Shown here: in pieces, positions 21,879-33,532 of the stretch
Layout of the letters: each line of letters starts with the position of its first letter
Position numbering within the stretch: the stretch's first letter is position 1
Source of the DNA: Candidatus Omnitrophota bacterium
GTDB lineage: Bacteria > Omnitrophota > Gorgyraeia > Gygaellales > Profunditerraquicolaceae
Length of the DNA stretch: 64,000 nucleotides
Direction of reading: 5' to 3'
NCBI GenBank assembly: GCA_043814315.1
Contig: JBDRKE010000010.1
Span: 66,896-130,895, forward strand
The notes under the pieces: model-generated
The model's database searches: none
What the model was told of the DNA's origin: nothing
What the model saw: the letters and a program-made list of their open reading frames with translations, nothing else
Translations under genes and position numbers: made by a program

Positions 21879-22079
21879 ATGACGAGATTGATCGATATTA
21901 ATGAATTAGCCGACTATTTACGATTAAAGAAACAGACCATTTATAATTGGCTGCATCAGTCAAAGATTTCTGGTATTAAGGTGGGTGGGGTGTGGAGGTT
22001 TGACCGTAAAGATGTGGATAGTTGGTTGAAAAGCAGAAGGCGATTGTCAAAAGACTTAAAATCCGGAGAAAAGCAATGA
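21879..22079 (+). CDS. excisionase/MerR-type helix-turn-helix DNA-binding protein
   Basis: 66 aa. LIDINELADYLRLKKQTIYNWLHQSKISGIKVGGVWRFDRKDVDSWL is the HTH_17 pattern. Its stop overlaps the next start (ATGA). Confidence 0.7.
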   Translation: MTRLIDINELADYLRLKKQTIYNWLHQSKISGIKVGGVWRFDRKDVDSWLKSRRRLSKDLKSGEKQ

Positions 22080-23644
22080 GTTCGTTAGGAATATATTTTG
22101 GCCCTAAGTTGATAAAGATTGTGGAATGCCAAGGCCACAATCTCAAAAATGTCACCCAGATTCATCAGTCGACAATCTCTGCGGGAGAATTGGAAGAAAA
22201 AGTCCCCGCTGAAGTTAAAACCATTGAATTCGTCGCTCTTTTTAAAGATGAGCTGCGAAGAAACAAAATTGAAGCCAAACAGGCCACGCTCTCTCTTTCC
22301 GGAAGGGATTTGATTATTCGGACCTTTGAGATACCCATGATTCCGCGCGAAGAAATAGAAAGCGCCGTAAATTTTGAAGCCAAAAAATACATCCCCTTTA
22401 AAGTCGAAGAACTGGTAACGGATTTTCAGCTAAAATTTGACAAGTCCAGCCGTACAAATCTGGTTCTTTTTATGGGGTTAAAAAAAGAGACTTTAGATAA
22501 ATATGTTTCTATTCTTAATCAGTTGAACATCAAGATTCATGCCATCGAATATTCGGCTTTTAGCATGATAAGATGTTTGAAGCTTAGCGGCTTAAGCGAT
22601 AGAGGAACTATAGGGATTTTGGGTGCTGACCTGACAGGGGAGGATGAGGTTAATTTTACGGTTTTGGAAGATGGTTTTCCGCTGTTTAGCCGGGATATTT
22701 CTTTGGCAGGAGGACCTGAAAGCTTAGGCAGGCTAAAAGAGACAGGGCCGTTGGAAGCTTTAGAAAAGCTTAAGACGGAGATCCATGTTTCTTTAGATTA
22801 CTACAACCGTAAATACCCCACCAAAAATATCAAGAAAATATTTCTTATTTCCGACCCTGATAATCGCCTGGAATTGGAAGCGTTTATTAAGGAAACGGGT
22901 TTATTGGTTCAATTTGTTAATACGTCTAAATACTCGAAGGAATCCCCGGCTTACTCTTTAAGTTTTTTAAAAGCCTACAGCAGTTCTTTATCTAAAACGA
23001 TAAGGCTGTTGCTGAAGGTCAATCTATTAGCAGCAAAAGAAAAGTTAAAATTAGCAAAAGAAAAAGCTGTTTTCAAGGAGAGGCTTTCCCTATTTGAGAA
23101 CTTAAGGCTGGATTATAGAGTCCTTTTTCTGGGCCTCTTGTTATGCGTGGGCGCTTACGGTTACGGCGTTTATCAAATGCAACCTTTACGTAAGGACCTT
23201 GTTGATATCCATTCCAGAAGATTGGCGGTTTCCAGCGTAAATGCAGGCGGCACTCAAGAAGAATTAACCGATGCCGCTGTCCAGGCTAAAAGGAGGCTTG
23301 GGTCCTTGGAAAACCTTATTAAGGGGCAAGTGTATCTTACGGAAATATTTAATATCCTGCCCCAGGATCTCCCCAGGGGCCTATGGTTCACTAATTTTTC
23401 TCTTGGCAAGAAAGAGGAAACGGGAACCGAGCTTATCCTGGGAGGCAGGGTGGATCTGGGGGATAGCGATGAAGAATTCAAGACCGTAAACGATTTTCTT
23501 TCGAACCTGGAAAGACGCACGGAATTCGTCAAATACTTTAAACAGGTCAGCCTCATCTCCTTAGAGAATGTACAATTAGCGAATGAGCTCTATCCGTATA
23601 CCCAGTTTGTCATTTCTTGTAAAAGTTATTCGACTGAGGAATAG
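22076..23644 (+). CDS. PilM-PilN fusion protein (type IV pilus assembly)
   Basis: The N-terminal ~330 aa are PilM-like (RTFEIPMIPREEIESAVNFEAKKYIPF). These are followed by VNLL, a TM segment (VLFLGLLLCVGAYGYGVY) and a PilN-like periplasmic domain. Confidence 0.75.
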   Translation: MSSLGIYFGPKLIKIVECQGHNLKNVTQIHQSTISAGELEEKVPAEVKTIEFVALFKDELRRNKIEAKQATLSLSGRDLIIRTFEIPMIPREEIESAVNFEAKKYIPFKVEELVTDFQLKFDKSSRTNLVLFMGLKKETLDKYVSILNQLNIKIHAIEYSAFSMIRCLKLSGLSDRGTIGILGADLTGEDEVNFTVLEDGFPLFSRDISLAGGPESLGRLKETGPLEALEKLKTEIHVSLDYYNRKYPTKNIKKIFLISDPDNRLELEAFIKETGLLVQFVNTSKYSKESPAYSLSFLKAYSSSLSKTIRLLLKVNLLAAKEKLKLAKEKAVFKERLSLFENLRLDYRVLFLGLLLCVGAYGYGVYQMQPLRKDLVDIHSRRLAVSSVNAGGTQEELTDAAVQAKRRLGSLENLIKGQVYLTEIFNILPQDLPRGLWFTNFSLGKKEETGTELILGGRVDLGDSDEEFKTVNDFLSNLERRTEFVKYFKQVSLISLENVQLANELYPYTQFVISCKSYSTEE

Positions 23645-23648
23645 CCCT

Positions 23649-24155
23649 ATGGATGCATTTGAATTCATGACCAAGCATAAAAATAGAATTTTCAATCTTT
23701 TATTTTTCGCCTTATCTCTTTTTATTGCCGGCAAGATTTATAATAAGCAACTCAGAGAGGTGGATCTATTAATCGAAAAGAAGAATTTGGAATCGAAAAG
23801 AAATGAAATATTGGAAAGCATCAGCAGCACCGAGAAAAAAATCGATGCCTATAAGAATCTCTTGGAGAGAAGAGACGTAAGCAATGTTATAAACACCATA
23901 AGCGATATTGCCAGCGCAACGGACGTTAGCATCACCTCCATGAGGCCTAACCATCAAGAAAAATATCCTGAATACGTTAAGATTCCTTATAAATTGGAAC
24001 TGGCGACTGAAAGTTATCATAACCTGGGCCGTTTTCTAAGCCGCCTGGAGAGCCATGAGGACGTTTTTATGGTGGATTCTATTGATATAAGGACACAGGA
24101 ACGCTCTGATGGATTAAAGGCCGCTTTAACCTTAAATTTAGTTGTATATAAATAA
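23649..24155 (+). CDS. PilO-like pilus assembly protein
   Basis: N-terminal TM segment, a coiled coil, then YVKIPYKLELATESYHNLGRFLSRLESHEDVFMVDSIDI, which is the PilO signature layout. Confidence 0.65.
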   Translation: MDAFEFMTKHKNRIFNLLFFALSLFIAGKIYNKQLREVDLLIEKKNLESKRNEILESISSTEKKIDAYKNLLERRDVSNVINTISDIASATDVSITSMRPNHQEKYPEYVKIPYKLELATESYHNLGRFLSRLESHEDVFMVDSIDIRTQERSDGLKAALTLNLVVYK

Positions 24156-24159
24156 CCTT

Positions 24160-24705
24160 ATGGTACAAAATCTCATACTTGGCCGCATAAAAGGCTTAAG
24201 ATTCAAAGGAGAGGGAATTTTTCTAATGATATTTGTCTTGACGGTAGGAGGCTTAATCGGGAGAGATTCATTGGCTGCCTCCGCAACTTATGAGGAGATT
24301 CAGGAATTAGAGAAAGATGAAAACATTTCTCCTCCTGCGCGTATCGAAAGGCCCGTTGTCGAATATCGGTCAGGACACTTAAAGGATCCTTTTCAGCGGT
24401 TCAGGAGCAGCAAAAGGACGCAAGGCCCGCAAGACGCCACAGAAGCTAAATCCGCTAAAAAGAAAAGACCCCTTCCGCCTTTGGAGATTCAAGGGGTAGT
24501 CTGGGGAGGGATTTTTCCTCAAGCCGTCGTTGATAATAAAGTTGTAAAAGTTGGAGATACCATAAAGCTTGAGCAGGCGCAAGAAGAGATAAGAATTATC
24601 AGTATCGATAAAGAAGGGATAACGGTATCTTTCGATGAGCAAAATTATAAATTGTCAGCTCCGGCAGGAGGCGACACTTCTTTCAAAATACCTTCAGGAG
24701 GATAA
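24160..24705 (+). CDS. PilP-like small periplasmic protein
   Basis: Signal/TM segment and a C-terminal beta-domain (LEIQGVVWGG..AVVDNKVVKVGD...IISIDKEGITVSF), positioned immediately before the secretin gene. It parallels ORF 46748..47137. Confidence 0.4.
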   Translation: MVQNLILGRIKGLRFKGEGIFLMIFVLTVGGLIGRDSLAASATYEEIQELEKDENISPPARIERPVVEYRSGHLKDPFQRFRSSKRTQGPQDATEAKSAKKKRPLPPLEIQGVVWGGIFPQAVVDNKVVKVGDTIKLEQAQEEIRIISIDKEGITVSFDEQNYKLSAPAGGDTSFKIPSGG

Positions 24706-24706
24706 A

Positions 24707-26284
24707 ATGAAAAAAATCTTTAGGCTGGGTGTATCTTTTTTTATGGTGATTTTTTACCTGTTCCTTCCTAAGCTGAATGCTTATCCAGAGGCCCCTTTGC
24801 TGGAGGCGGATAGTCCTGCGGAAATCTCCATGGATTTCAAGGACGCCAACCTCAAGGATGTCTTAAAAGTATTTTCTATCCAGTCCGGCATGAATTTTAT
24901 CTCTTCTGAAGCCGTGCAAGACAGGAAGATAACCCTCTATCTGGATAAGGTCCCTATCGAACAGGCTATGGATAAACTGTTTAAAGCCAACAATCTTTCC
25001 TATGAATATTACAGGGATTCCAATATATTTATCGTTAAGGAATGGGGAAAATTACAGATTGAAACCCAAACCCGCGTATTTTATCTTAAGCACGCGACGG
25101 TTTCCACCTCTTCTTTAAAACAGGAGATGCACGATATTCTGGTCAGTCAAGATAGCGGTGGAAATGCTGGTGCAGGAAAATGGAAGCAGGAAGAGGCTGC
25201 CGGCATTTCGACGGTCATCAAAAAGTTACTTTCTGACGCAGGCTCCATGATTGAAGATTATCGCACCAACAGTCTTATTATTACGGATACACCCCAACGG
25301 TTGCAGGTTATTGCCGGGGTCATTGCTTCCCTGGATGTGCCTGTTCCGCAGGTCCTCTTGGAAGTGGAGATGTTAGATGTCAGTAAGAATAGCGTGGATA
25401 AATTAGGATTGAAATGGCCTACGACATTAGCGCAGTTGACCGTACCCGGATCCCGTATGACTTCGTTTCCTTTCTCGGGAAATAAAGGAACCTCAGGAAA
25501 TAGCTATACTATTGATCCCAATGAGGGTGCTTTCGGAGGTCCGGGCGACGGATGGGATTTTCCAGCGTGGGGGGCGTCTCATTTCGGTCCGTCAATTCTC
25601 ACTATTATAGGCACAACCCTGACCCTGGATTTTTTAAGAACCCAAACCGACACCAAATTTTTGGCTCGGCCCCGGATCCTGACCTTGAATAATGAAACCG
25701 CGGAGATCCGCATTGCTACGAATGAATCCATCGGCGTAACCACTACCACTACTTCTGCCGGAGGGAACACCGGTTCATCCACAGCCGAGGCAGAAAGAGT
25801 AGAAACCGGGGTGATTTTAAGAGTAACGCCTCAGATCAATCTGGAGACCGGCGAAATCACCATGTTTATTTACCCTAAAGTTTCAGAGGCCGTGCAAGGA
25901 AGCACGATAACCAGCGGAGGTCAGACAAGCAGATTCAGGGATCCGGAAGTGCGCAGCACCAAGTCTTTGGTAAAGGTTAAGGATGGGGAAACGATTGTTA
26001 TCGGCGGGCTTCTGCGCGATGAATTCAGCCAGGTTACGGAAAAATTACCCATTTTAGGGGATCTCCCCTTTATAGGGGCCTTATTCAGGCATAAGGGAGG
26101 CGATAGCGATAAGAATAAACAACGCGAACTGCTTGTTTTTATTACGCCTCATATCATGAAAGATTCGGAAATAAAACTTGTTCAAAGGGAGCAAGTAAAG
26201 TTGTCTGGCAGGGAGCAGAGTACGATTTCAGCACTGAGTCGAGAGGTGGCTATCAATTCCAGCATGAACCGTTTTGATCAATAA
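24707..26284 (+). CDS. secretin (PilQ/GspD family)
   Basis: Signal peptide, an N0-like domain (ISMDFKDANLKDVLKVFS...) and a C-terminal secretin domain (RPRILTLNNETAEI..., VKDGETIVIGGL, LPILGDLPFIGALFR). Confidence 0.9.
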   Translation: MKKIFRLGVSFFMVIFYLFLPKLNAYPEAPLLEADSPAEISMDFKDANLKDVLKVFSIQSGMNFISSEAVQDRKITLYLDKVPIEQAMDKLFKANNLSYEYYRDSNIFIVKEWGKLQIETQTRVFYLKHATVSTSSLKQEMHDILVSQDSGGNAGAGKWKQEEAAGISTVIKKLLSDAGSMIEDYRTNSLIITDTPQRLQVIAGVIASLDVPVPQVLLEVEMLDVSKNSVDKLGLKWPTTLAQLTVPGSRMTSFPFSGNKGTSGNSYTIDPNEGAFGGPGDGWDFPAWGASHFGPSILTIIGTTLTLDFLRTQTDTKFLARPRILTLNNETAEIRIATNESIGVTTTTTSAGGNTGSSTAEAERVETGVILRVTPQINLETGEITMFIYPKVSEAVQGSTITSGGQTSRFRDPEVRSTKSLVKVKDGETIVIGGLLRDEFSQVTEKLPILGDLPFIGALFRHKGGDSDKNKQRELLVFITPHIMKDSEIKLVQREQVKLSGREQSTISALSREVAINSSMNRFDQ

Positions 26285-26286
26285 CC

Positions 26287-28008
26287 ATGCCGAAAGACAG
26301 ATATTTAAGATTAGGGGAACTCCTCATTAAAGAGGGGCTGATCAATACCGGTCAGTTAGAAAAAGCCATCAGCGCCCAAAGGCACGAGGGTGGCCGATTA
26401 GGAGAGGTTTTGGTCAGGTTGGGGTTTATCAGGGAGGACCAGGTCGTTGCTGTTCTGGGCAAGCAACTTAATATTCCTTATTTTTCTTTGGGCACGGGGA
26501 TGTTAAAACCCGCCATGGATCAGGGGCTGGAACGCCTCATCTCCGAGGATTTTGCCCTTAAGAATTCAGTCCTTCCCTTATCGCGCACCTTAAGGTCTAT
26601 TACCGTGGCGATGTCCGACCCCCTGGACCTTATCCTGGTTGATAATTTGAGAAAATTGACGGGGTGCGAAATCAATCCTGTCATTGCCACCAAATCCGAT
26701 ATCGCTAAAGCCGTCGAGGCCTTTTATGGGAAGTCCGCTATGCTGAAAGAGGCGGTGGAGGCCAGTTATGACCTTTCCAAAGTCGAAGCGCCATCGGGTG
26801 ACGCGGAAACCGCTGACCAGGAGCTCTCACTCGATAAATTAATTGCCCGCGCTGAAGAGGCTCCGGTGGTGAAATTGGTAGATTTGATCGTGCGTCAGGC
26901 GATTGATGAAAGGGCTTCGGATATCCATATCGAGCCGTTCAAAGACAGGATTTCGCTTCGGTATCGAGTCGACGGCAAGCTCTATGAGATTCCTCCTCCG
27001 GCCAAACACCTGCACATGCCGATTATATCGCGCGTCAAAATTTTGTCAAAATTAGATATTGCGGAGAAGCGGCTTCCGCAAGACGGTGCCTTCTTAGTCA
27101 GGATAAACGAAAAACCGATAGATATAAGAGTTTCCACCATACCCACCATCTATGGGGAGAAGGTCGTTATGAGAATACTGGATAGGAGCGCCGTAGTTTT
27201 GGATATTAATGTTTTAGGGTTCGGCCCCAAACAACTGGAAGACATGCGCCGCTCGATCAATGCTCCTTACGGACTGGTATTCTTAACCGGGCCTACGGGT
27301 AGCGGGAAAACCACGACCCTTTACGCCATATTAAACGAAATAAAAAATCCCACAAAAAACATAGTGACTGTCGAGGATCCGGTCGAATACAAATTAGAAG
27401 GCATTAATCAAGTCCAGGTCAAGCCTGAGATCGGGCTTACCTTTGCTGCGGCACTGCGCAGTTTCTTAAGGCAGGACCCGGATATCATGTTAGTCGGCGA
27501 GGTAAGGGATTTAGAAACGGCAGAGATTTGCATCCGTTCTGCTTTAACCGGACACCTCGTGCTAAGCACACTGCACACTAATGATGCGCCTTCAGCCGTG
27601 AACCGCCTCATGGATATCGGCATTGAGCCTTACATGCTGGCGCCATCTTTACTGTGCGTAGTGGGGCAGCGTCTCTTAAGGAAACTTTGCCCTGAATGCA
27701 AAGAGGCTTATGAGCCCGCCCAGGAAGAGCGTGACAGCGTAAAGTTAAAAGCAGATTTGATCTACCGGCCGAAAGGCTGTACGAAGTGCAACAATACGGG
27801 GTTTAACGGCCGGGTCTGTATCGCCGAGGTTATGATAGTCAACCAGGAGATTCAGGACTTGATTAACCAGAAGGCGCCTTTTCAGAAAACAAGGGCTGCC
27901 GCCAAGGCGCACGGGATGGAGACGCTTTATGAATCGGCCATAAAGAAGGTCGAACAGGGGGTTACCTCCCTTGAAGAGGCCCTTTCAGTTACGCTGGGTG
28001 CTGATTAA
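26287..28008 (+). CDS. GspE/PilB family type II/IV secretion ATPase
   Basis: 573 aa. T2SSE_N-like N-terminus, Walker A motif GPTGSGKTTT, Walker B/Asp box, His box, and a tetracysteine motif (CPECK...CTKCNNTG). Confidence 0.93.
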   Translation: MPKDRYLRLGELLIKEGLINTGQLEKAISAQRHEGGRLGEVLVRLGFIREDQVVAVLGKQLNIPYFSLGTGMLKPAMDQGLERLISEDFALKNSVLPLSRTLRSITVAMSDPLDLILVDNLRKLTGCEINPVIATKSDIAKAVEAFYGKSAMLKEAVEASYDLSKVEAPSGDAETADQELSLDKLIARAEEAPVVKLVDLIVRQAIDERASDIHIEPFKDRISLRYRVDGKLYEIPPPAKHLHMPIISRVKILSKLDIAEKRLPQDGAFLVRINEKPIDIRVSTIPTIYGEKVVMRILDRSAVVLDINVLGFGPKQLEDMRRSINAPYGLVFLTGPTGSGKTTTLYAILNEIKNPTKNIVTVEDPVEYKLEGINQVQVKPEIGLTFAAALRSFLRQDPDIMLVGEVRDLETAEICIRSALTGHLVLSTLHTNDAPSAVNRLMDIGIEPYMLAPSLLCVVGQRLLRKLCPECKEAYEPAQEERDSVKLKADLIYRPKGCTKCNNTGFNGRVCIAEVMIVNQEIQDLINQKAPFQKTRAAAKAHGMETLYESAIKKVEQGVTSLEEALSVTLGAD

Positions 28009-29237
28009 TGCCAAAATTTTTCTACATTGCCAGGAATAAGCTCGGCAAGAAAGATACCGGAGCCGAAGAGGCTGCCACACAGGAAGAAGCCATTCTTAGG
28101 TTGCAGTCTAGGGATCTGGTGGTCATCAGCATCCTACCTGCCTTTAAAGAATCCGGGGTCAACCAGGAAGTCATATCAAAGGCGAAGTTTAAACCAAAGC
28201 ACTTCCGTATTTCAGGGGAAGACCTGGTTCTTTTCTGCAGGCAGTTAGCCACGCTTTTAGGCGCAGGCGTAACGATCTTGAAGAGTCTGGATATTATTTC
28301 GCAACAGGTATCCAGCCGCAGGCTTTATGAGGTTATCAAAGAGTTACAGAAAAATATGGAAGCAGGATTAAGTTTTCATGAAGCTATATCAAAGCACCGT
28401 TTGATATTTTCTGAATTGTGGGTTAATCTTGTGGAAAGCGGGGAGGCCTCCGGAAATTTAGCCATGGTTTTGAGCCGCCTGGCCAGCTACTTAGAGAGAA
28501 ATGCGGCGTTTAAGAAAAAGATTGTTTCTGCTTTGATTTACCCTACCATCTTGATGCTGGTCGGGACAGGCGCACTTTTGTTCTTGACCGTTAAGATTAT
28601 ACCTACCTTTGCCGTCTTATTTCAGGGTTTCGATGTAAAGATGCCCTTTTTGACATCCGTGCTTATAGCCGTAAGCGGCTTTATGAGAAAATACCTGCTC
28701 ACTATTTTTGTCTTAGGGATTATCGGGTTCTTCATTTTTAAAAATTATATTTCTACAAAGCAGGGCCGAAGAGCCTTTGAGAAAATTTTGTTCAATCTTC
28801 CGGTCTTCGGAGAATTTTTTCGTGTGCTGATTGTGGAGCGCTTCACTTCTGAAATGGCCACTCTCGTTGAAAGTGGCGTGCCCATATTGTATTCTTTGGA
28901 AATCACGGAGCATAGCGTCGGAAATCTGACGCTGGGGGAGATCATCGGCAGAATCAAAGACGATGTGCGCGAAGGCAAACCTTTGTCCCAGCCGCTGGAC
29001 AGAAGCGGATTCTTCGAGCCTATGGCCGTACAAATGGTGACGATCGGAGAAGAAATCGGAGAATTATCCAGTATGTTTAAGAAATTGAATTCTTTTTATC
29101 AGGAATACGTGGATACGTTTTTGACCCGGTTTACGGTCATGTTTGAGCCGATAATGCTTATTTTTATGGGTGTCGTGATCGGCATGATGGTGGTGGGGAT
29201 GTTTTTACCTATATTCCAGCTTGTCCAGATACGCTAG
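28008..29237 (+). CDS. GspF/PilC family platform protein
   Basis: 409 aa with two T2SSF repeats and three TM segments. The start overlaps the ATPase stop. Confidence 0.92.
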   Translation: MPKFFYIARNKLGKKDTGAEEAATQEEAILRLQSRDLVVISILPAFKESGVNQEVISKAKFKPKHFRISGEDLVLFCRQLATLLGAGVTILKSLDIISQQVSSRRLYEVIKELQKNMEAGLSFHEAISKHRLIFSELWVNLVESGEASGNLAMVLSRLASYLERNAAFKKKIVSALIYPTILMLVGTGALLFLTVKIIPTFAVLFQGFDVKMPFLTSVLIAVSGFMRKYLLTIFVLGIIGFFIFKNYISTKQGRRAFEKILFNLPVFGEFFRVLIVERFTSEMATLVESGVPILYSLEITEHSVGNLTLGEIIGRIKDDVREGKPLSQPLDRSGFFEPMAVQMVTIGEEIGELSSMFKKLNSFYQEYVDTFLTRFTVMFEPIMLIFMGVVIGMMVVGMFLPIFQLVQIR

Positions 29238-29257
29238 GTTCCATACGCATAATTTAT

Positions 29258-29285
29258 TTGACTTGATTGTTTTTTGTGATATTCT
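29258..29285 (+). promoter_or_regulatory. sigma70-like promoter candidate (extended -10) for the pilin operon
   Basis: TTGACT (29258..29263), a 16-nt spacer ending in TGa, then TATTCT (29280..29285). This predicts a leader of roughly 275 nt before the pilin ATG. Confidence 0.45.
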
Positions 29286-29401
29286 AAATCAAGAGAGAGG
29301 AGGTGGTAGGTAGAGTAAATTTTTTGTTATTTCGAAAATGGTGTTATTGAAAAGTCGAAGGGCAGGTTTATCCCTCGCACCTGACAAGCCATAGATGGGT
29401 G

Positions 29402-29557
29402 CTCGGGATAATTTGCTGACCCGTAAGAGCGGGCAAATTAATTCGTTAACCCGTTATAGCTGGCGAATAATTTACTGAGCGGTTATAGCGGGGAAATTAA
29501 TCCGCTGACTAGTTATAGCAGACGGATAATTTGCTGACCCGTAATAGCGGGCAAATT
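29402..29557 (+). repeat. tandem array of five ~30-nt hairpin units directly upstream of a pilin SD
   Basis: Each unit has the form aatt-X5-...gtta/tagc...-X5'-aatt, and the outer stems differ between units (ttgc/gcaa, ttcg/cgaa, tccg/cgga). The first and last units (29406.. and 29524..) are identical except for one base. The array ends 1 nt before the aggagg SD. Confidence 0.85.
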
Positions 29558-29568
29558 AGGAGGAAAAG

Positions 29569-29964
29569 ATGAAAAGAGGTTTTACGTTACTAGAACTGAT
29601 CATTGTCATCATCGTCGTCGGTATATTAGCTACCCTTGGTTTTGTCCAGTATACAAGCATGATTGAAAAAGGCCGAAAAGCAGAGGCCAGAAGCATTTTG
29701 GGGACGTTACGTCAGTTAGAGGTTGTGCGGTATCAGGAAACAGGAGCTTATAGTAATTTGGCTGGCTTAAGTACGGGTGTACCTGACGGCGCATGTGCAG
29801 CCACACATTATTTTTTCTACGCCTGCGCCGCTGGAACAGGCACCTGCACAGCTACTAGATGTATAGGTGTTGTAGGTAAACAGCCAGGCGTTCCTGCCGC
29901 AGATGTCTATACCATTACGTTGAGTGTTGACGGAAATTTCAACGGAACAGGCAATTGGCAGTAA
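29569..29964 (+). CDS. type IV pilin-like protein (paralog 1)
   Basis: MKRG|FTLLELIIVIIVVGILA prepilin motif. The C-terminal domain has four Cys. Confidence 0.85.
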   Translation: MKRGFTLLELIIVIIVVGILATLGFVQYTSMIEKGRKAEARSILGTLRQLEVVRYQETGAYSNLAGLSTGVPDGACAATHYFFYACAAGTGTCTATRCIGVVGKQPGVPAADVYTITLSVDGNFNGTGNWQ

Positions 29965-29988
29965 GGATATAAAAAAGACAGCATTATC

Positions 29989-30399
29989 TTGGAGAGAAAG
30001 AAGAAGAAAAAAGGCTTTACAATGTTAGAGCTAGTTATAGTCATTGTGGTCGTGGCTATACTAGTGAGTTTAGGGCTTGTTCAGTTTACTTCCGTGATGG
30101 AAAAGGGCCGTAAAGCAGAAGCCAGAAGCATCCTGGGGACGCTGCGTCAGTTAGAGATTTCGCGATACGAAGAGATGCTCACGTATAGTAATTTAGCAGG
30201 ATTAGGCATAGCTGTACCTGACGGCGCATGTGCAGCCACGCATTATTTTTTCTACGCCTGCGCCGCTGGAACAGGCACCTGCACGGCTACTAGATGTATA
30301 GGTGCTGTAGGTAAACAGCCAGGCGTTCCTGCCGCAGATGTTTATACCATCACGCTGGATGTTAACGGAAATTTCTCGGGAACAGGCAATTGGCAGTAA
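29989..30399 (+). CDS. type IV pilin-like protein (paralog 2)
   Basis: TTG start with leader MERKKKKKG|FTMLELVIVIVVVAILV. The last ~186 nt are nearly identical to paralog 1. Confidence 0.85.
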   Translation: MERKKKKKGFTMLELVIVIVVVAILVSLGLVQFTSVMEKGRKAEARSILGTLRQLEISRYEEMLTYSNLAGLGIAVPDGACAATHYFFYACAAGTGTCTATRCIGAVGKQPGVPAADVYTITLDVNGNFSGTGNWQ

Positions 30400-30417
30400 G
30401 GACAGGAGAAAAAGCCG

Positions 30418-30831
30418 ATGAAGAAAACTGGCGTTACTTTGCTGGAAATGGTGATTACCGTTATGCTCATCGGTATTTTAGGTACACTGGGCTTTATCCA
30501 ATACGGGAATTACCGAGAAGAGGCTTTGGGCAAAGAGGCGCGCGCGAATTTGAGATTGATTATAGCTGCGCAAAGGATCTACAAGATAAAAACAAGCGCT
30601 TACTTCCCTGCTGCCGGAGGTACCGAGAGTAACACAGGCACCATTAATGATAATCTGAAAGTGCTTTTGTCCACTTTAGCGGGTTCTGGCCGGACATGGG
30701 ATTATCTGGTGACCTCTTCAGGCGGTTCAACCTGCGTTCAGGCAACGAGATTTAATGGGCCTGCAAAAACCTGGAGATTCCGCAATAATGAACCTGGCGG
30801 AGATCCTCTTGAAAATGCCACTTGTCCTTAA
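30418..30831 (+). CDS. type IV pilin / pseudopilin-like protein
   Basis: MKKTG|VTLLEMVITVMLIGILG. The C-terminus is similar to ORF 18..419. Confidence 0.8.
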   Translation: MKKTGVTLLEMVITVMLIGILGTLGFIQYGNYREEALGKEARANLRLIIAAQRIYKIKTSAYFPAAGGTESNTGTINDNLKVLLSTLAGSGRTWDYLVTSSGGSTCVQATRFNGPAKTWRFRNNEPGGDPLENATCP

Positions 30832-30836
30832 CCTTA

Positions 30837-31268
30837 ATGCCTATGTGTGAAAAAAGTATAATGGCCTTTACCCCGCACTTCATAAAGCCTCGTCTTAAAT
30901 CCTGCACCCCTCTTGTGCGGAATTTAGGACGATGTGCGGGGTTTACCTTGATTGAAATCTTAGTTTCTACGGTGCTCATTTCTTTGGTTTTAGTTGGGTT
31001 AGGGAATCTTTTTCTGGGCGGAAAAAAATGGATGCAGCACCGCCGCTACCAAATCACTGCCGGCCAAATAGCCAAGGTTTTTTTAGACCCTTTGCAGATG
31101 GATGTCCGTCAGGACCAATGGGGAAGTAACTGTTTAAGCAGCGGCATAGGTTGCCCAGGCACCCAAAATGTGGATGGCATTACCTACACTCCTGTTTATA
31201 ATATTTCGGCTGTTGGGAATTTGCGTCGCGTCCAGTTGACTATTAGCTGGAGCGAGCCCACCTCTTAG
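30837..31268 (+). CDS. minor pseudopilin-like protein with an unusually long leader
   Basis: Contains ..LGRCAG|FTLIEILVSTVLISLVLVGL. The start is uncertain (TTG 30822, ATG 30837 or ATG 30861), which gives a 27-40-aa leader. Confidence 0.6.
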   Translation: MPMCEKSIMAFTPHFIKPRLKSCTPLVRNLGRCAGFTLIEILVSTVLISLVLVGLGNLFLGGKKWMQHRRYQITAGQIAKVFLDPLQMDVRQDQWGSNCLSSGIGCPGTQNVDGITYTPVYNISAVGNLRRVQLTISWSEPTS

Positions 31269-31862
31269 ATGCCCGAAAATAAAAAAATTCCCGGAGTCAC
31301 TCTTATAGAATTAATTATCGCTATTGTCTTGATTTCATTCATTGTCTTAGGGATTGCGAATATTGATACCTTCTTCCATTTTCATGTCCTGAATGCGGAT
31401 CGCCGCATTAAGATTCAATATGAAACCTCCATTTCCTTAGAACACATGACGAAGGAGATGGTAAGGGCCATAGGAGATACCAATAAGCCTCCTGTGACCT
31501 TGCTTTTGCCTTCTGGTTCCATCTACCGCGGCATTAGGGTCTGGGTGGATGAAAACCAAAACGGAATTCAGGATACTTACCCCACGGACCGTGAAATCGG
31601 TTATCTCTACCAACAGGGCTCGAGTACGATTCAGTATTATAACCCCTGCCGAGGCCCGAGCTGCAACTGGGCAGGAAGCCTGCTGAATGAGACCCTATCT
31701 CGACAGATTGCCGAGTGTACCTTTACCTGGTCTGCGAGCACTGGAAACTTCGTTGATGTCAACATCACCTCGCGCCACAATACCTCCGTGGCCTCTTCTG
31801 TGGATAATCCCGAAATGAACATGATCGCCCGTATTCAAATGCCTGCCGTATCTACCCATTGA
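31269..31862 (+). CDS. minor pseudopilin-like protein (GspJ/PilW-like size)
   Basis: MPENKKIPG|VTLIELIIAIVLISFIVLGI. 197 aa. Confidence 0.7.
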   Translation: MPENKKIPGVTLIELIIAIVLISFIVLGIANIDTFFHFHVLNADRRIKIQYETSISLEHMTKEMVRAIGDTNKPPVTLLLPSGSIYRGIRVWVDENQNGIQDTYPTDREIGYLYQQGSSTIQYYNPCRGPSCNWAGSLLNETLSRQIAECTFTWSASTGNFVDVNITSRHNTSVASSVDNPEMNMIARIQMPAVSTH

Positions 31863-32111: not shown

Positions 32112-32187
32112 GGGGCAGTAGCTCAGCTGGGAGAGCGTCGCGTTCGCATCGCGAAGGTCGGGAGTTCGATCCTCCTCTGCTCCACCA
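32112..32187 (+). tRNA. tRNA-Ala (anticodon CGC), CCA encoded
   Basis: The cloverleaf was folded by hand. Acceptor stem ggggcag/ctgctcc includes the G3:U70 Ala identity pair. The anticodon loop ttCGCat and T-loop ttcgatc are present, with discriminator A followed by CCA. Confidence 0.93.
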
Positions 32188-32420
32188 AAATTTTCCAGCC
32201 TCTCGCCCTTTGGGCTCGGGATAATTCGTCGACCGATAAGGTATAACGGGCGAATTAACAAGGAAAATTTTGGTGGCACTTGAACGAGCGCGGGCGAGGC
32301 AGCCCCTCGGCCGTTGGCCTCGGGATAATTCACCGATATGCAATAGCGGGTGAATTAACAAGCGAGGCAGCGAGTGAAAGTGCATACTTCCTTGATTTTT
32401 GATAAGGAAAAATTTGGTGG
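32188..32420 (+). repeat. two ~105-nt repeat units downstream of tRNA-Ala, each with a ctcgggataatt...aattaacaag hairpin
   Basis: The hairpins at 32213..32262 (aattcg/cgaatt stem) and 32318..32366 (aattcacc/ggtgaatt stem) share the ctcgggataatt lead-in seen at 29402. In addition, ggaaaa(a)tttggtgg at 32262 and 32406 is an inverted copy of the tRNA 3' end caccaaaattttcc. Confidence 0.8.
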
Positions 32421-32428
32421 CCTCCTCT

Positions 32429-33532
32429 ATGAAAAATATATTCAGATTGCCTTTGGCTGTTGTTTTATTTTCGGCAATCCTGACGGCCTGTTTCTATTGG
32501 CCGTTGATTTCAGCCGAGGCGCCCCTTAAAGAAGGCCTTTTTTATGAGAAGCTGAAAGGTAATACTGTTCAGTGTCATATCTGTCCCCGTCATTGTATTA
32601 TTCCCGCAGGCAGGCGGGGATTCTGCGGCGTCAGAGAGAATCGCGACGGCATTCTGTACGCCTTATCCTACGGAAAACTGGTTTCCGCCCATATTGACCC
32701 CATTGAAAAAAAGCCTTTGTTTCATTTCTATCCTGCCACTACCGCTTTTTCCATTGCCACGGCTGGCTGTAATTTAAGATGCAAATTCTGTCAAAACTGG
32801 GAGATCTCCCAGAGAAAACCCGAGGAGGTCAATTATAGTTATATTGAGCCCCGGGATTTAATAGAGAAGGTTATGGAATCCGGTTCTCTCACCATTGCCT
32901 ACACGTATACGGAGCCCACCATATTTTACGAATATATGCTGGAGACGGCAAAGCTGGCTAAAAAAGAAGGGATCAAAAATATTATGCACTCCTGCGGGTA
33001 TATCAACGAGCCGCCCTTGCGGGAGTTGATTCCGTATCTGGATGCCGCTAACATTGATTTAAAAGGCTTTAGCGACGATTATTATCAGAAACTTTCGGAA
33101 GCAAGCCTTGAGCCCGTACTTAACACGTTGAGGATATTAAAAGAAGAAGGGGTGCATCTGGAGATAACCAATTTGCTCTTGCCTGGATTTAACGATGATC
33201 CCGAAACGATAGCCAAGATGTGCCTCTGGATAAAAGAAAATCTGGGTGCGGATACGCCGCTGCATTTTTCCCGCTTTTTTCCGATGTATAAATTGTTAAG
33301 CTTAAACCCTACGCCTGTGCAGTCTTTAGAAAGGGCGCGCCAGATCGCGTTGGATAGCGGCCTGAAATACGTCTATATAGGGAATCTGGCAGGGCATCCG
33401 GCTGAGAATACCTATTGCCCCAAATGCAAACAGCTTTTGATTGAACGTAAGGGCTACTTTATCCTGAAAAACAATATTCAGGACGGAAAGTGCAAATACT
33501 GCGGAGAGAAGATTGAAGGAGTCTGGCAGTAA
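32429..33532 (+). CDS. AmmeMemoRadiSam system radical SAM enzyme
   Basis: Contains CHICPRHCIIPAGRRGFCGVRENRDG and the CNLRCKFCQNWE (CxxxCxxC) cluster, and is adjacent to a Memo/AMMECR1 gene. It carries an extra hydrophobic N-terminus (MKNIFRLPLAVVLFSAILTACFYWPLISA). Confidence 0.85.
   Translation: MKNIFRLPLAVVLFSAILTACFYWPLISAEAPLKEGLFYEKLKGNTVQCHICPRHCIIPAGRRGFCGVRENRDGILYALSYGKLVSAHIDPIEKKPLFHFYPATTAFSIATAGCNLRCKFCQNWEISQRKPEEVNYSYIEPRDLIEKVMESGSLTIAYTYTEPTIFYEYMLETAKLAKKEGIKNIMHSCGYINEPPLRELIPYLDAANIDLKGFSDDYYQKLSEASLEPVLNTLRILKEEGVHLEITNLLLPGFNDDPETIAKMCLWIKENLGADTPLHFSRFFPMYKLLSLNPTPVQSLERARQIALDSGLKYVYIGNLAGHPAENTYCPKCKQLLIERKGYFILKNNIQDGKCKYCGEKIEGVWQ

Follow-up and report, generated by a model that had tools for sequence, protein, structure and literature searches.

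In the 64,000-nucleotide stretch analyzed here (the window; positions 66,896 to 130,895 of contig JBDRKE010000010.1, assembly GCA_043814315.1 of a Candidatus Omnitrophota bacterium), two adjacent genes for predicted type IV pilins, designated A and B, form part of a type IV pilus operon. Gene A (29569..29964, plus strand) encodes a product of 131 amino acids (aa) and is preceded by an AGGAGG ribosome-binding site at 29558-29563. Gene B (29989..30399, plus strand) encodes 136 aa if read from the TTG codon at 29989; an alternative start is the ATG at 30022. The genes are separated by a 24-nt junction (29965..29988, plus strand), apparently a relic of an ancestral tandem duplication, in which neither a terminator nor a ribosome-binding site for B was found. 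The products are identical to the NCBI entries P0001 (A, 100%) and P0002 (B), encoded on one 133-kb contig, and are 81% identical to each other overall.

The genes of the operon follow one another in the order PilM-PilN fusion (22022-23644), PilO (23583-24155), an unassigned open reading frame (ORF), secretin (24635-26284), PilB, PilC, pilin A, pilin B and three prepilin-like genes. Type IV pilus machinery is therefore encoded directly 5' of the pilins: the PilB-type ATPase at 26287-28008 (plus strand; Pfam T2SSE, 4e-138) and the PilC-type platform protein at 28008-29237 (plus strand; Pfam T2SSF, 5e-56). The same synteny is found in relatives. The three prepilin-like genes on the 3' side (30418-30831, 30822-31268 and 31269-31862, plus strand) are likewise syntenic in all relatives and probably encode minor pilins. 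The second and third of them score above the cut-off for Pfam N_methyl, the first below it (17.5 bits, E 0.003), and no terminator was found between them and the A-B pair.

Both pilins show the features of class III signal peptides, namely G(-1), F(+1) and E(+5) ahead of a hydrophobic N-terminal segment. The prepilin motifs KRG/FTLLEL and KKG/FTMLEL (the slash marks the cleavage site) can be read in the pilin sequences, and Pfam PF07963 N_methyl is matched at 26.3 bits by A and 30.5 bits by B (cut-off 21.2). The AlphaFold2 model of A, built with 119 homologues, has a pilin architecture and a mean predicted local distance difference test score (pLDDT) of 93.7; it consists of a long helix (residues 7-58), a short helix (64-67) and four strands (82-86, 93-97, 115-118 and 124-127). 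When this model was compared with the PDB by Foldseek, PilE of Neisseria gonorrhoeae and N. meningitidis came out best (5vxx_A with TMq 0.56 and probability 1.00), with weak E-values (0.009-0.44). The leader, the neighboring pilus genes and the predicted fold of A agree in identifying A and B as putative type IVa-like pilins. Four cysteines of the head (C76, C86, C93 and C98) are conserved across the close family.

Segmental identity of the two pilin genes

The two genes were compared in an ungapped register, at an offset of 435 nt. Positions 29569-29778 of A are 70.0% identical to their counterparts in B (63 differences in 210 nt) and positions 29779-29964 are 93.5% identical (12 differences in 186 nt). 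The maximum chi-square method placed a breakpoint at 29778/29779 (chi2 36), and none of 5000 permutations gave a value as high (p<1/5000). An earlier note, made by eye on this DNA, had counted about a dozen differences in the last 186 nt, about one difference in three positions in the helix-coding part and an intermediate level in a middle block, and had set non-uniform identity along the genes as a check. The measured values agree with it on each count, the helix part (29578-29664) being 64% and the middle block (29665-29721) 88% identical.

The 3' segment is itself a mosaic, in which 29779-29906 contain 3 differences in 128 nt and 29907-29943 contain 9 in 37 nt. Identity returns after 29943 and continues for 3 nt past the stop codon (TAAGGA), the limit of the duplicated unit. 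The putative converted tract thus extends in A over 29779..29967 (plus strand; codons V71 to stop plus 3 nt) and in B, in register with it, over 30214..30402 (plus strand); blastn aligns the two at 93.65% over 189 nt. In the AlphaFold2 model its 5' boundary lies between the alpha-beta loop, which contains the short helix 64-67, and the first strand (82-86), so the tract spans the entire beta-sheet head.

To describe the two parts by type of substitution, the proportions of synonymous (pS) and non-synonymous (pN) differences were calculated by the Nei-Gojobori method for the N half (G4-G70), the C half (V71-Q131) and the core of the C half (V71-V113). This comparison of substitution rates by half had been named as a check in the earlier note. 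In the N half pS between A and B is 0.709, i.e. saturated, and pN is 0.171, while in the C half the values are 0.127 and 0.045. The core contains three synonymous differences and one non-synonymous difference (pS 0.089). The distribution of synonymous differences between the 5' and 3' parts departs strongly from uniformity (Fisher p = 8.9e-9). Since selection on the protein cannot erase synonymous differences, their loss in the 3' part points to gene conversion.

The middle block of A (I32-E51, EKGRKAEARSILGTLRQLE; 29662..29721, plus strand; its partner in B is 30097-30156) has a different character, its pN being 0.022 and its pS 0.506. All of 119 family members have E33, R36, E39, L44 and R48, and the core EKGRxAEA...L..R is near-invariant among them. 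As judged from these values, the similarity of the middle block is attributable to purifying selection on the EKGRxAEA motif and not to conversion.

Relatives of the pair and phylogenies of the gene halves

Most close relatives (L001-L005, L009, L011-L014 and L018) have a single pilin gene between pilC and a gene for a 137-aa product. The pair was found in two further lineages. In the first, represented by L006 together with L007/L008 (overlapping short contigs from the ATLA15-1 metagenomes), the order is A (P0003), junction, B (P0013) and the 137-aa gene; in the second, L017 (GCA_017973895.1), A (P0009) is followed by a B-like copy. The junction between A and B can be aligned in the three lineages (TAAGGA...TCTTG), clearly between the window and L006 and more loosely with L017, which points to a single ancestral duplication. 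It should be mentioned that the last ~26 nt of L007 (721-746, TGTAATTATTAAATACCGAGAAAGAA) depart from L006 inside the B copy, right after ...CTGATTGT, and that L008 ends exactly where L007 departs from L006; the end of L007 probably is chimeric or reflects strain variation.

Neighbor-joining trees with 500 bootstraps were built separately for the 3' and 5' halves. In the 3'-half tree the two copies of one genome group together: A and B of the window with support 1.00, those of L006/L007 with 0.94-0.96 and those of L017 with 0.90. Thus, in the comparison of orthologous pairs, which the earlier note had also named as a check, the paralogue heads cluster by genome. In the 5'-half trees the A copies join their orthologues (A of L017 and the single-copy gene of L009 with 0.81), and each B copy forms a long branch apart from the A copy of its pair; B of the window groups with B of L006/L007 (0.66-0.89). 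The similarity of the 3' parts of the pairs also varies by lineage, from 96% to 86% and 78%. The pair of L017 has a breakpoint of its own, further 5' than that of the window (alignment column 61; maximum chi-square p<2e-4), which argues that the boundary is no fixed hotspot. In the C half, L009 and both copies of L017 form one group (0.93); since the shared head of L017 clusters with the head of L009, B there has an A-type head, and a transfer from A to B is indicated.

Taken together, these observations make it very probable that A and B are old tandem duplicates whose 3' halves have been made alike by recent gene conversion. The earlier note had offered two causes for the similarity of the 3' halves. 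Of these, gene conversion is borne out by the fall of pS and by the conflict of the trees; selection on the four-cysteine domain fares badly, as discussed below. Recurrent conversion appears well supported for the window and for L017, and the data for L006/L007 are only suggestive of it.

Several points weigh against this reading. In L006/L007 the maximum chi-square test is not significant (p = 0.15). When codon positions 1+2 only were used, the within-genome clustering fell to 0.54 for L006/L007 and 0.32 for L017, although part of this drop is expected because conversion shows mainly at synonymous sites. The monophyly of the B-type N halves has moderate support (0.41-0.89, depending on sites and taxa), and long-branch effects are possible, the synonymous sites of the N half being saturated. 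The patch of nine differences at 29907-29943 demands a second assumption, either patchy conversion or a part left unconverted. The shared head of the window has states unique to this genome, which give no indication of the direction of its conversion. Finally, the window genome is represented by one database assembly only.

Of the other explanations, the one that survives best is a recent duplication after which B received its 5' half by recombination with a foreign or distant pilin allele, yet we regard it as improbable. A comparison of two sequences cannot tell which half was swapped, the B-type N halves lie on long branches outside the A clade, and mosaics of opposite polarity occur in the family. 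The latter are found in two other Omnitrophota lineages: the tandem pilin copies of L015 (967-1846) differ at 4 positions over their first 186 nt but at 51 over the other 204 (p<2e-4), and in the pair of L019 (133-730) the second pilin copy has an identical N terminus, a ribosome-binding site of its own and a strong terminator before it. Both are independent tandem duplications of the major pilin gene with the usual polarity. As in these pairs the N halves are identical and the heads diverged, the inverted pattern is specific to the A-B pair. However, three lineages would have to have undergone this replacement at one and the same locus and also to share the junction and the substitutions, and the lineage-specific levels of 3' similarity fit independent conversions of different ages. 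Nor was a donor revealed: a profile of two B-type N halves, run against 5.8 billion proteins, detected no 5' sequence of this kind beyond the B copies, although this search is weak, as it also missed the truncated copy of L017. No match to the degenerate DNA pattern for the B-type motif F-x-x-V-M-E-K-G-R-K-A-E-A was found in metagenome contigs, and a scan of genome contigs that used copy B as the query brought up an unrelated Sulfurovum pilin and nothing else.

A very recent duplication of the whole gene, with rapid subsequent divergence of the 5' part of B under positive or relaxed selection, is very improbable. It would agree with the accelerated non-synonymous evolution of the N half of B (about five times that of A, see below) and with the loss or breakage of B copies in sister lineages. 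However, protein selection does not produce the synonymous saturation of the 5' part, changes at G18, Y28 and L7 recur together with the junction in three lineages, and in the 5' half B of the window joins B of L006/L007 and not its own partner.

That there was no recombination, purifying selection having fixed the four-cysteine head while the helix drifted, is scarcely credible. The four cysteines and several other head residues are indeed conserved across the family, but the fall of pS from 0.71 to 0.09-0.13 is beyond the reach of protein selection. Moreover, the head is the most variable part of the protein between orthologues, with a between-genome pN of 0.17-0.26 for the C half vs 0.046-0.05 for the A-type N half, and such a fast-evolving head argues that the similarity of the A and B heads does not come from functional constraint. 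The two heads also have in common derived states that are absent from all other lineages, among them an insertion of one codon (IG[V/A]VGKQPG). An assembly artefact (a collapsed or chimeric repeat) is about as improbable. In its favor, the window comes from a single contig of a metagenome-assembled genome, and the pair is interrupted by the ends of the related short contigs L006, L007 and L008, which marks the region as hard to assemble. Against it, the copies keep their 12 differences, neither ORF is disrupted or out of frame, independent assemblies of two other lineages have the tandem layout as well, and the longest exact run common to A and B, 44 nt (29806-29849), makes collapse unlikely, being shorter than the k-mers of 119 and 141 in the names of related contigs.

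Copies A and B and their genetic surroundings

Copy A is, as predicted from its gene and upstream region, the canonical major type IV pilin that has kept the ancestral role, with its own promoter and a strong ribosome-binding site. Its N half is almost identical to those of the single-copy orthologues. The putative promoter, of sigma-70 type (TTGACT, 16 nt and a TG-extended TATTCT; 29258..29285, plus strand), was detected by a consensus scan just 3' of pilC, and the motif TTGAC(T/A)...TATTCT is kept at the same position in every related locus.

The 5' untranslated region (UTR) of A contains an array of five hairpin units of ~29-30 nt (29408..29558, plus strand; Tandem Repeats Finder period 29, 5.1 copies), which ends at the ribosome-binding site and is part of the expression unit of A but not of B (RNA fold z = -3.8). 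It is confined to the window and L007 lineages, its counterpart being L007 109-226, and is absent from the other relatives examined. Stem changes between units are compensatory: TTTG/CAAA, TTCG/CGAA, TCCG/CGGA, TTCA/TGAA and TCCA/TGGA. In the nine units of the window and L007, 87.5% of the cells are paired and five of the eight pairs change on both sides, a score that none of 500 shuffles reached. The array may be a cis-regulatory or mRNA-stabilizing element. No credible Rfam match was found in the 5' UTR; COG3860 RNA on the minus strand (E = 0.68, 14 bits vs a cut-off of 42.5) is at chance level. A dispersed repeat was ruled out, as the 29-nt repeat occurs nowhere else in the window.

Copy B differs from A both in its start region and in its helix. 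In register with the ATG of A, B has AAG (30004-30006), and the ribosome-binding site that belonged to this start has degraded. As the shared start codon is lost, translation of B would proceed from TTG 29989 or from ATG 30022. The former is conserved in the L006 copy, and the latter would remove the leader peptide altogether. With such signals B is probably weakly translated.

The N half of B departs from the family at 8 positions that are at least 85% conserved, including G18A, A21V and Y28F, and can be told from that of A by peptides such as SVMEK (vs SMIEK) and LEISRYEEMLTYSNLAGLGIAVPDG. The three B copies deviate at 7-8 conserved N-half positions; in 116 other members the mean is 1.2 and the maximum 5. 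G18, Y28 and L7 are lost in all three B copies, and in the 116 others G18 is 99% and Y28 100% conserved. The residue matching G18 is G14 in mature numbering; in type IVa pilins that have been characterized in detail, this glycine lies in the stretch of helix that becomes unwound once the filament is assembled.

Between orthologues, the pN of the N half is 0.251 for B vs 0.046 for A. The pN of the B-type N half is below its saturated pS and two of the three B ORFs are intact, which indicates that B is constrained and is not a dead gene. The suggestion of the earlier note that the leader and helix regions are free to diverge must therefore be narrowed: only B is accelerated, and even there pN stays below pS, while the 5' halves are those of old paralogues and the N half of A is strongly conserved.

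On the other hand, B appears dispensable, being absent from L009, the sister lineage of L017, and broken in L017 itself. In the B-like copy of L017 (1741-2091), between the second and third cysteines, the TCA codon of the relatives is replaced by an in-frame TGA; either the copy is a recent pseudogene or the TGA is a sequencing error. In the B copy of the ATLA15-1 lineage, the residue at -1 of the cleavage site (...NRS/FVILEL; L006 179-214) is Ser, whereas Gly is near-universal there in prepilins, and three independent assemblies (L006, L007 and L008) agree on this residue.

Some features of the neighboring genes should be mentioned. The 540-aa ORF at 22022-23644 contains a PilM domain (residues 23-230) and a PilN domain (442-534), and L001 and L004 have 521-aa homologues with the same PilM-PilN fusion. 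The TTG start listed for ORF 30822-31268 overlaps the preceding gene by 10 nt and places the prepilin motif at residues 37-60; translation probably begins further 3', the products of relatives being 126-136 aa long. On the 3' side of the operon are a tRNA-Ala(CGC) gene (32112-32187), the only match in an Rfam scan of the window, and a gene for a radical S-adenosylmethionine (radical-SAM) protein (32399-33532). In relatives the radical-SAM gene adjoins a gene for a Memo/AMMECR1 fusion, with the same synteny.

Proposed mechanism, known systems and implications

Most probably, an old tandem duplication of the major pilin gene gave rise to A, the canonical copy, and to B, an accessory copy with an altered core helix. 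Non-reciprocal homologous recombination between these neighbors would then repeatedly have overwritten the 3' part, in which the beta-sheet head and its four cysteines are encoded, and the exchange would never have extended into the first ~55-70 codons. The last event in the window would have covered ~190 nt, from codon 71 as far as the duplicated unit extends, and would be recent relative to the duplication, judging by a synonymous divergence (dS) of ~0.1 against saturation in the 5' part. Its direction was probably from A to B. The 5' limit of the exchange may be set by selection, which would remove convertants losing the B-type helix, or by the 5' halves (~60-70% identical) having become too diverged to recombine.

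As to the role of B, it could be a low-abundance subunit, whose head would have to match the fast-changing head of A in order to pack in one filament. A more far-reaching proposal is that B represents a distinct, conserved core-variant pilin, in which G14 and Y24 (mature numbering) are lost and whose head tracks that of A via recurrent A-to-B conversion; we consider this rather doubtful. If true, conversion would keep the surface of a co-assembling or alternative subunit matched while altering filament assembly or mechanical properties. The related idea of the earlier note, the same head placed on a different assembly helix, is possible.

The closest analogue of the A-B pair is found in the babA/babB and homA/homB genes of Helicobacter pylori, which show the same pattern: segment 3 clusters by strain and segment 1 diverges, which is attributed to intragenomic gene conversion (PMC2795765, citing Pride and Blaser, 2002). 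However, the H. pylori genes are dispersed and encode outer-membrane adhesins, whereas A and B are adjacent pilin genes; exchange was shown experimentally in H. pylori and is inferred from sequence alone for A and B. The lpl tandem paralogues of Staphylococcus aureus resemble A and B in their arrangement and in the conflict of the 5' and 3' phylogenies, which is caused by recombination within the cluster (Tsuru and Kobayashi, 2008, PMC2568036). The variable ends of the lpl genes are exchanged by crossovers at a conserved block in their center, while in the A-B pair only the 3' part is homogenized and the tract boundary lies 57 nt 3' of the conserved middle block. The tandem pilins of L015 and L019 belong to the same family and share the locus type and arrangement with A and B, with opposite polarity.

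Among pilins, the pilE/pilS system of Neisseria is similar in that recombination between paralogues is non-reciprocal and limited to the part of the gene that encodes the exposed head. Its donors are silent cassettes, promoterless and 5'-truncated, and the exchange diversifies the expressed gene. A and B, in contrast, are both full length with leader peptides, their N-terminal parts are divergent, and the exchange homogenizes them. Beyond A and B, no further copies of the 3' segment were found in the 64-kb window by blastn and tblastn, and no G-quadruplex motif, (G3+N1-7)x3 G3+, was found on either strand of 28501-31000. With B of full length, no additional partial copies in the window and no such motif, a Neisseria-like silent-cassette system was ruled out.

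A possible model for B is provided by Thermus thermophilus, in which the wide pilus of PilA4 and the narrow pilus of PilA5 depend on one machinery with more than one major-pilin-like subunit. Structures of both Thermus pili (6xxd, 6xxe and 8qqj) were among the sequence matches. In Thermus, however, the two pilins are different over their whole length, and their genes are neither adjacent nor homogenized; a filament of its own is not implied for B.

To a process that is already known, the pair would add a clean example from an uncultured phylum: the conversion is partial, its limits are well defined, and it is seen in three related lineages. The pair indicates that the likeness of its pilin heads is a signature of recombination and not of functional constraint. 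It also calls for caution, as a diverged N terminus combined with an identical C terminus need not mean relaxed selection on the helix. If B is expressed, the pair would constitute a natural experiment, in which the same head is carried on two assembly helices, for the contribution of the helix to filament properties.

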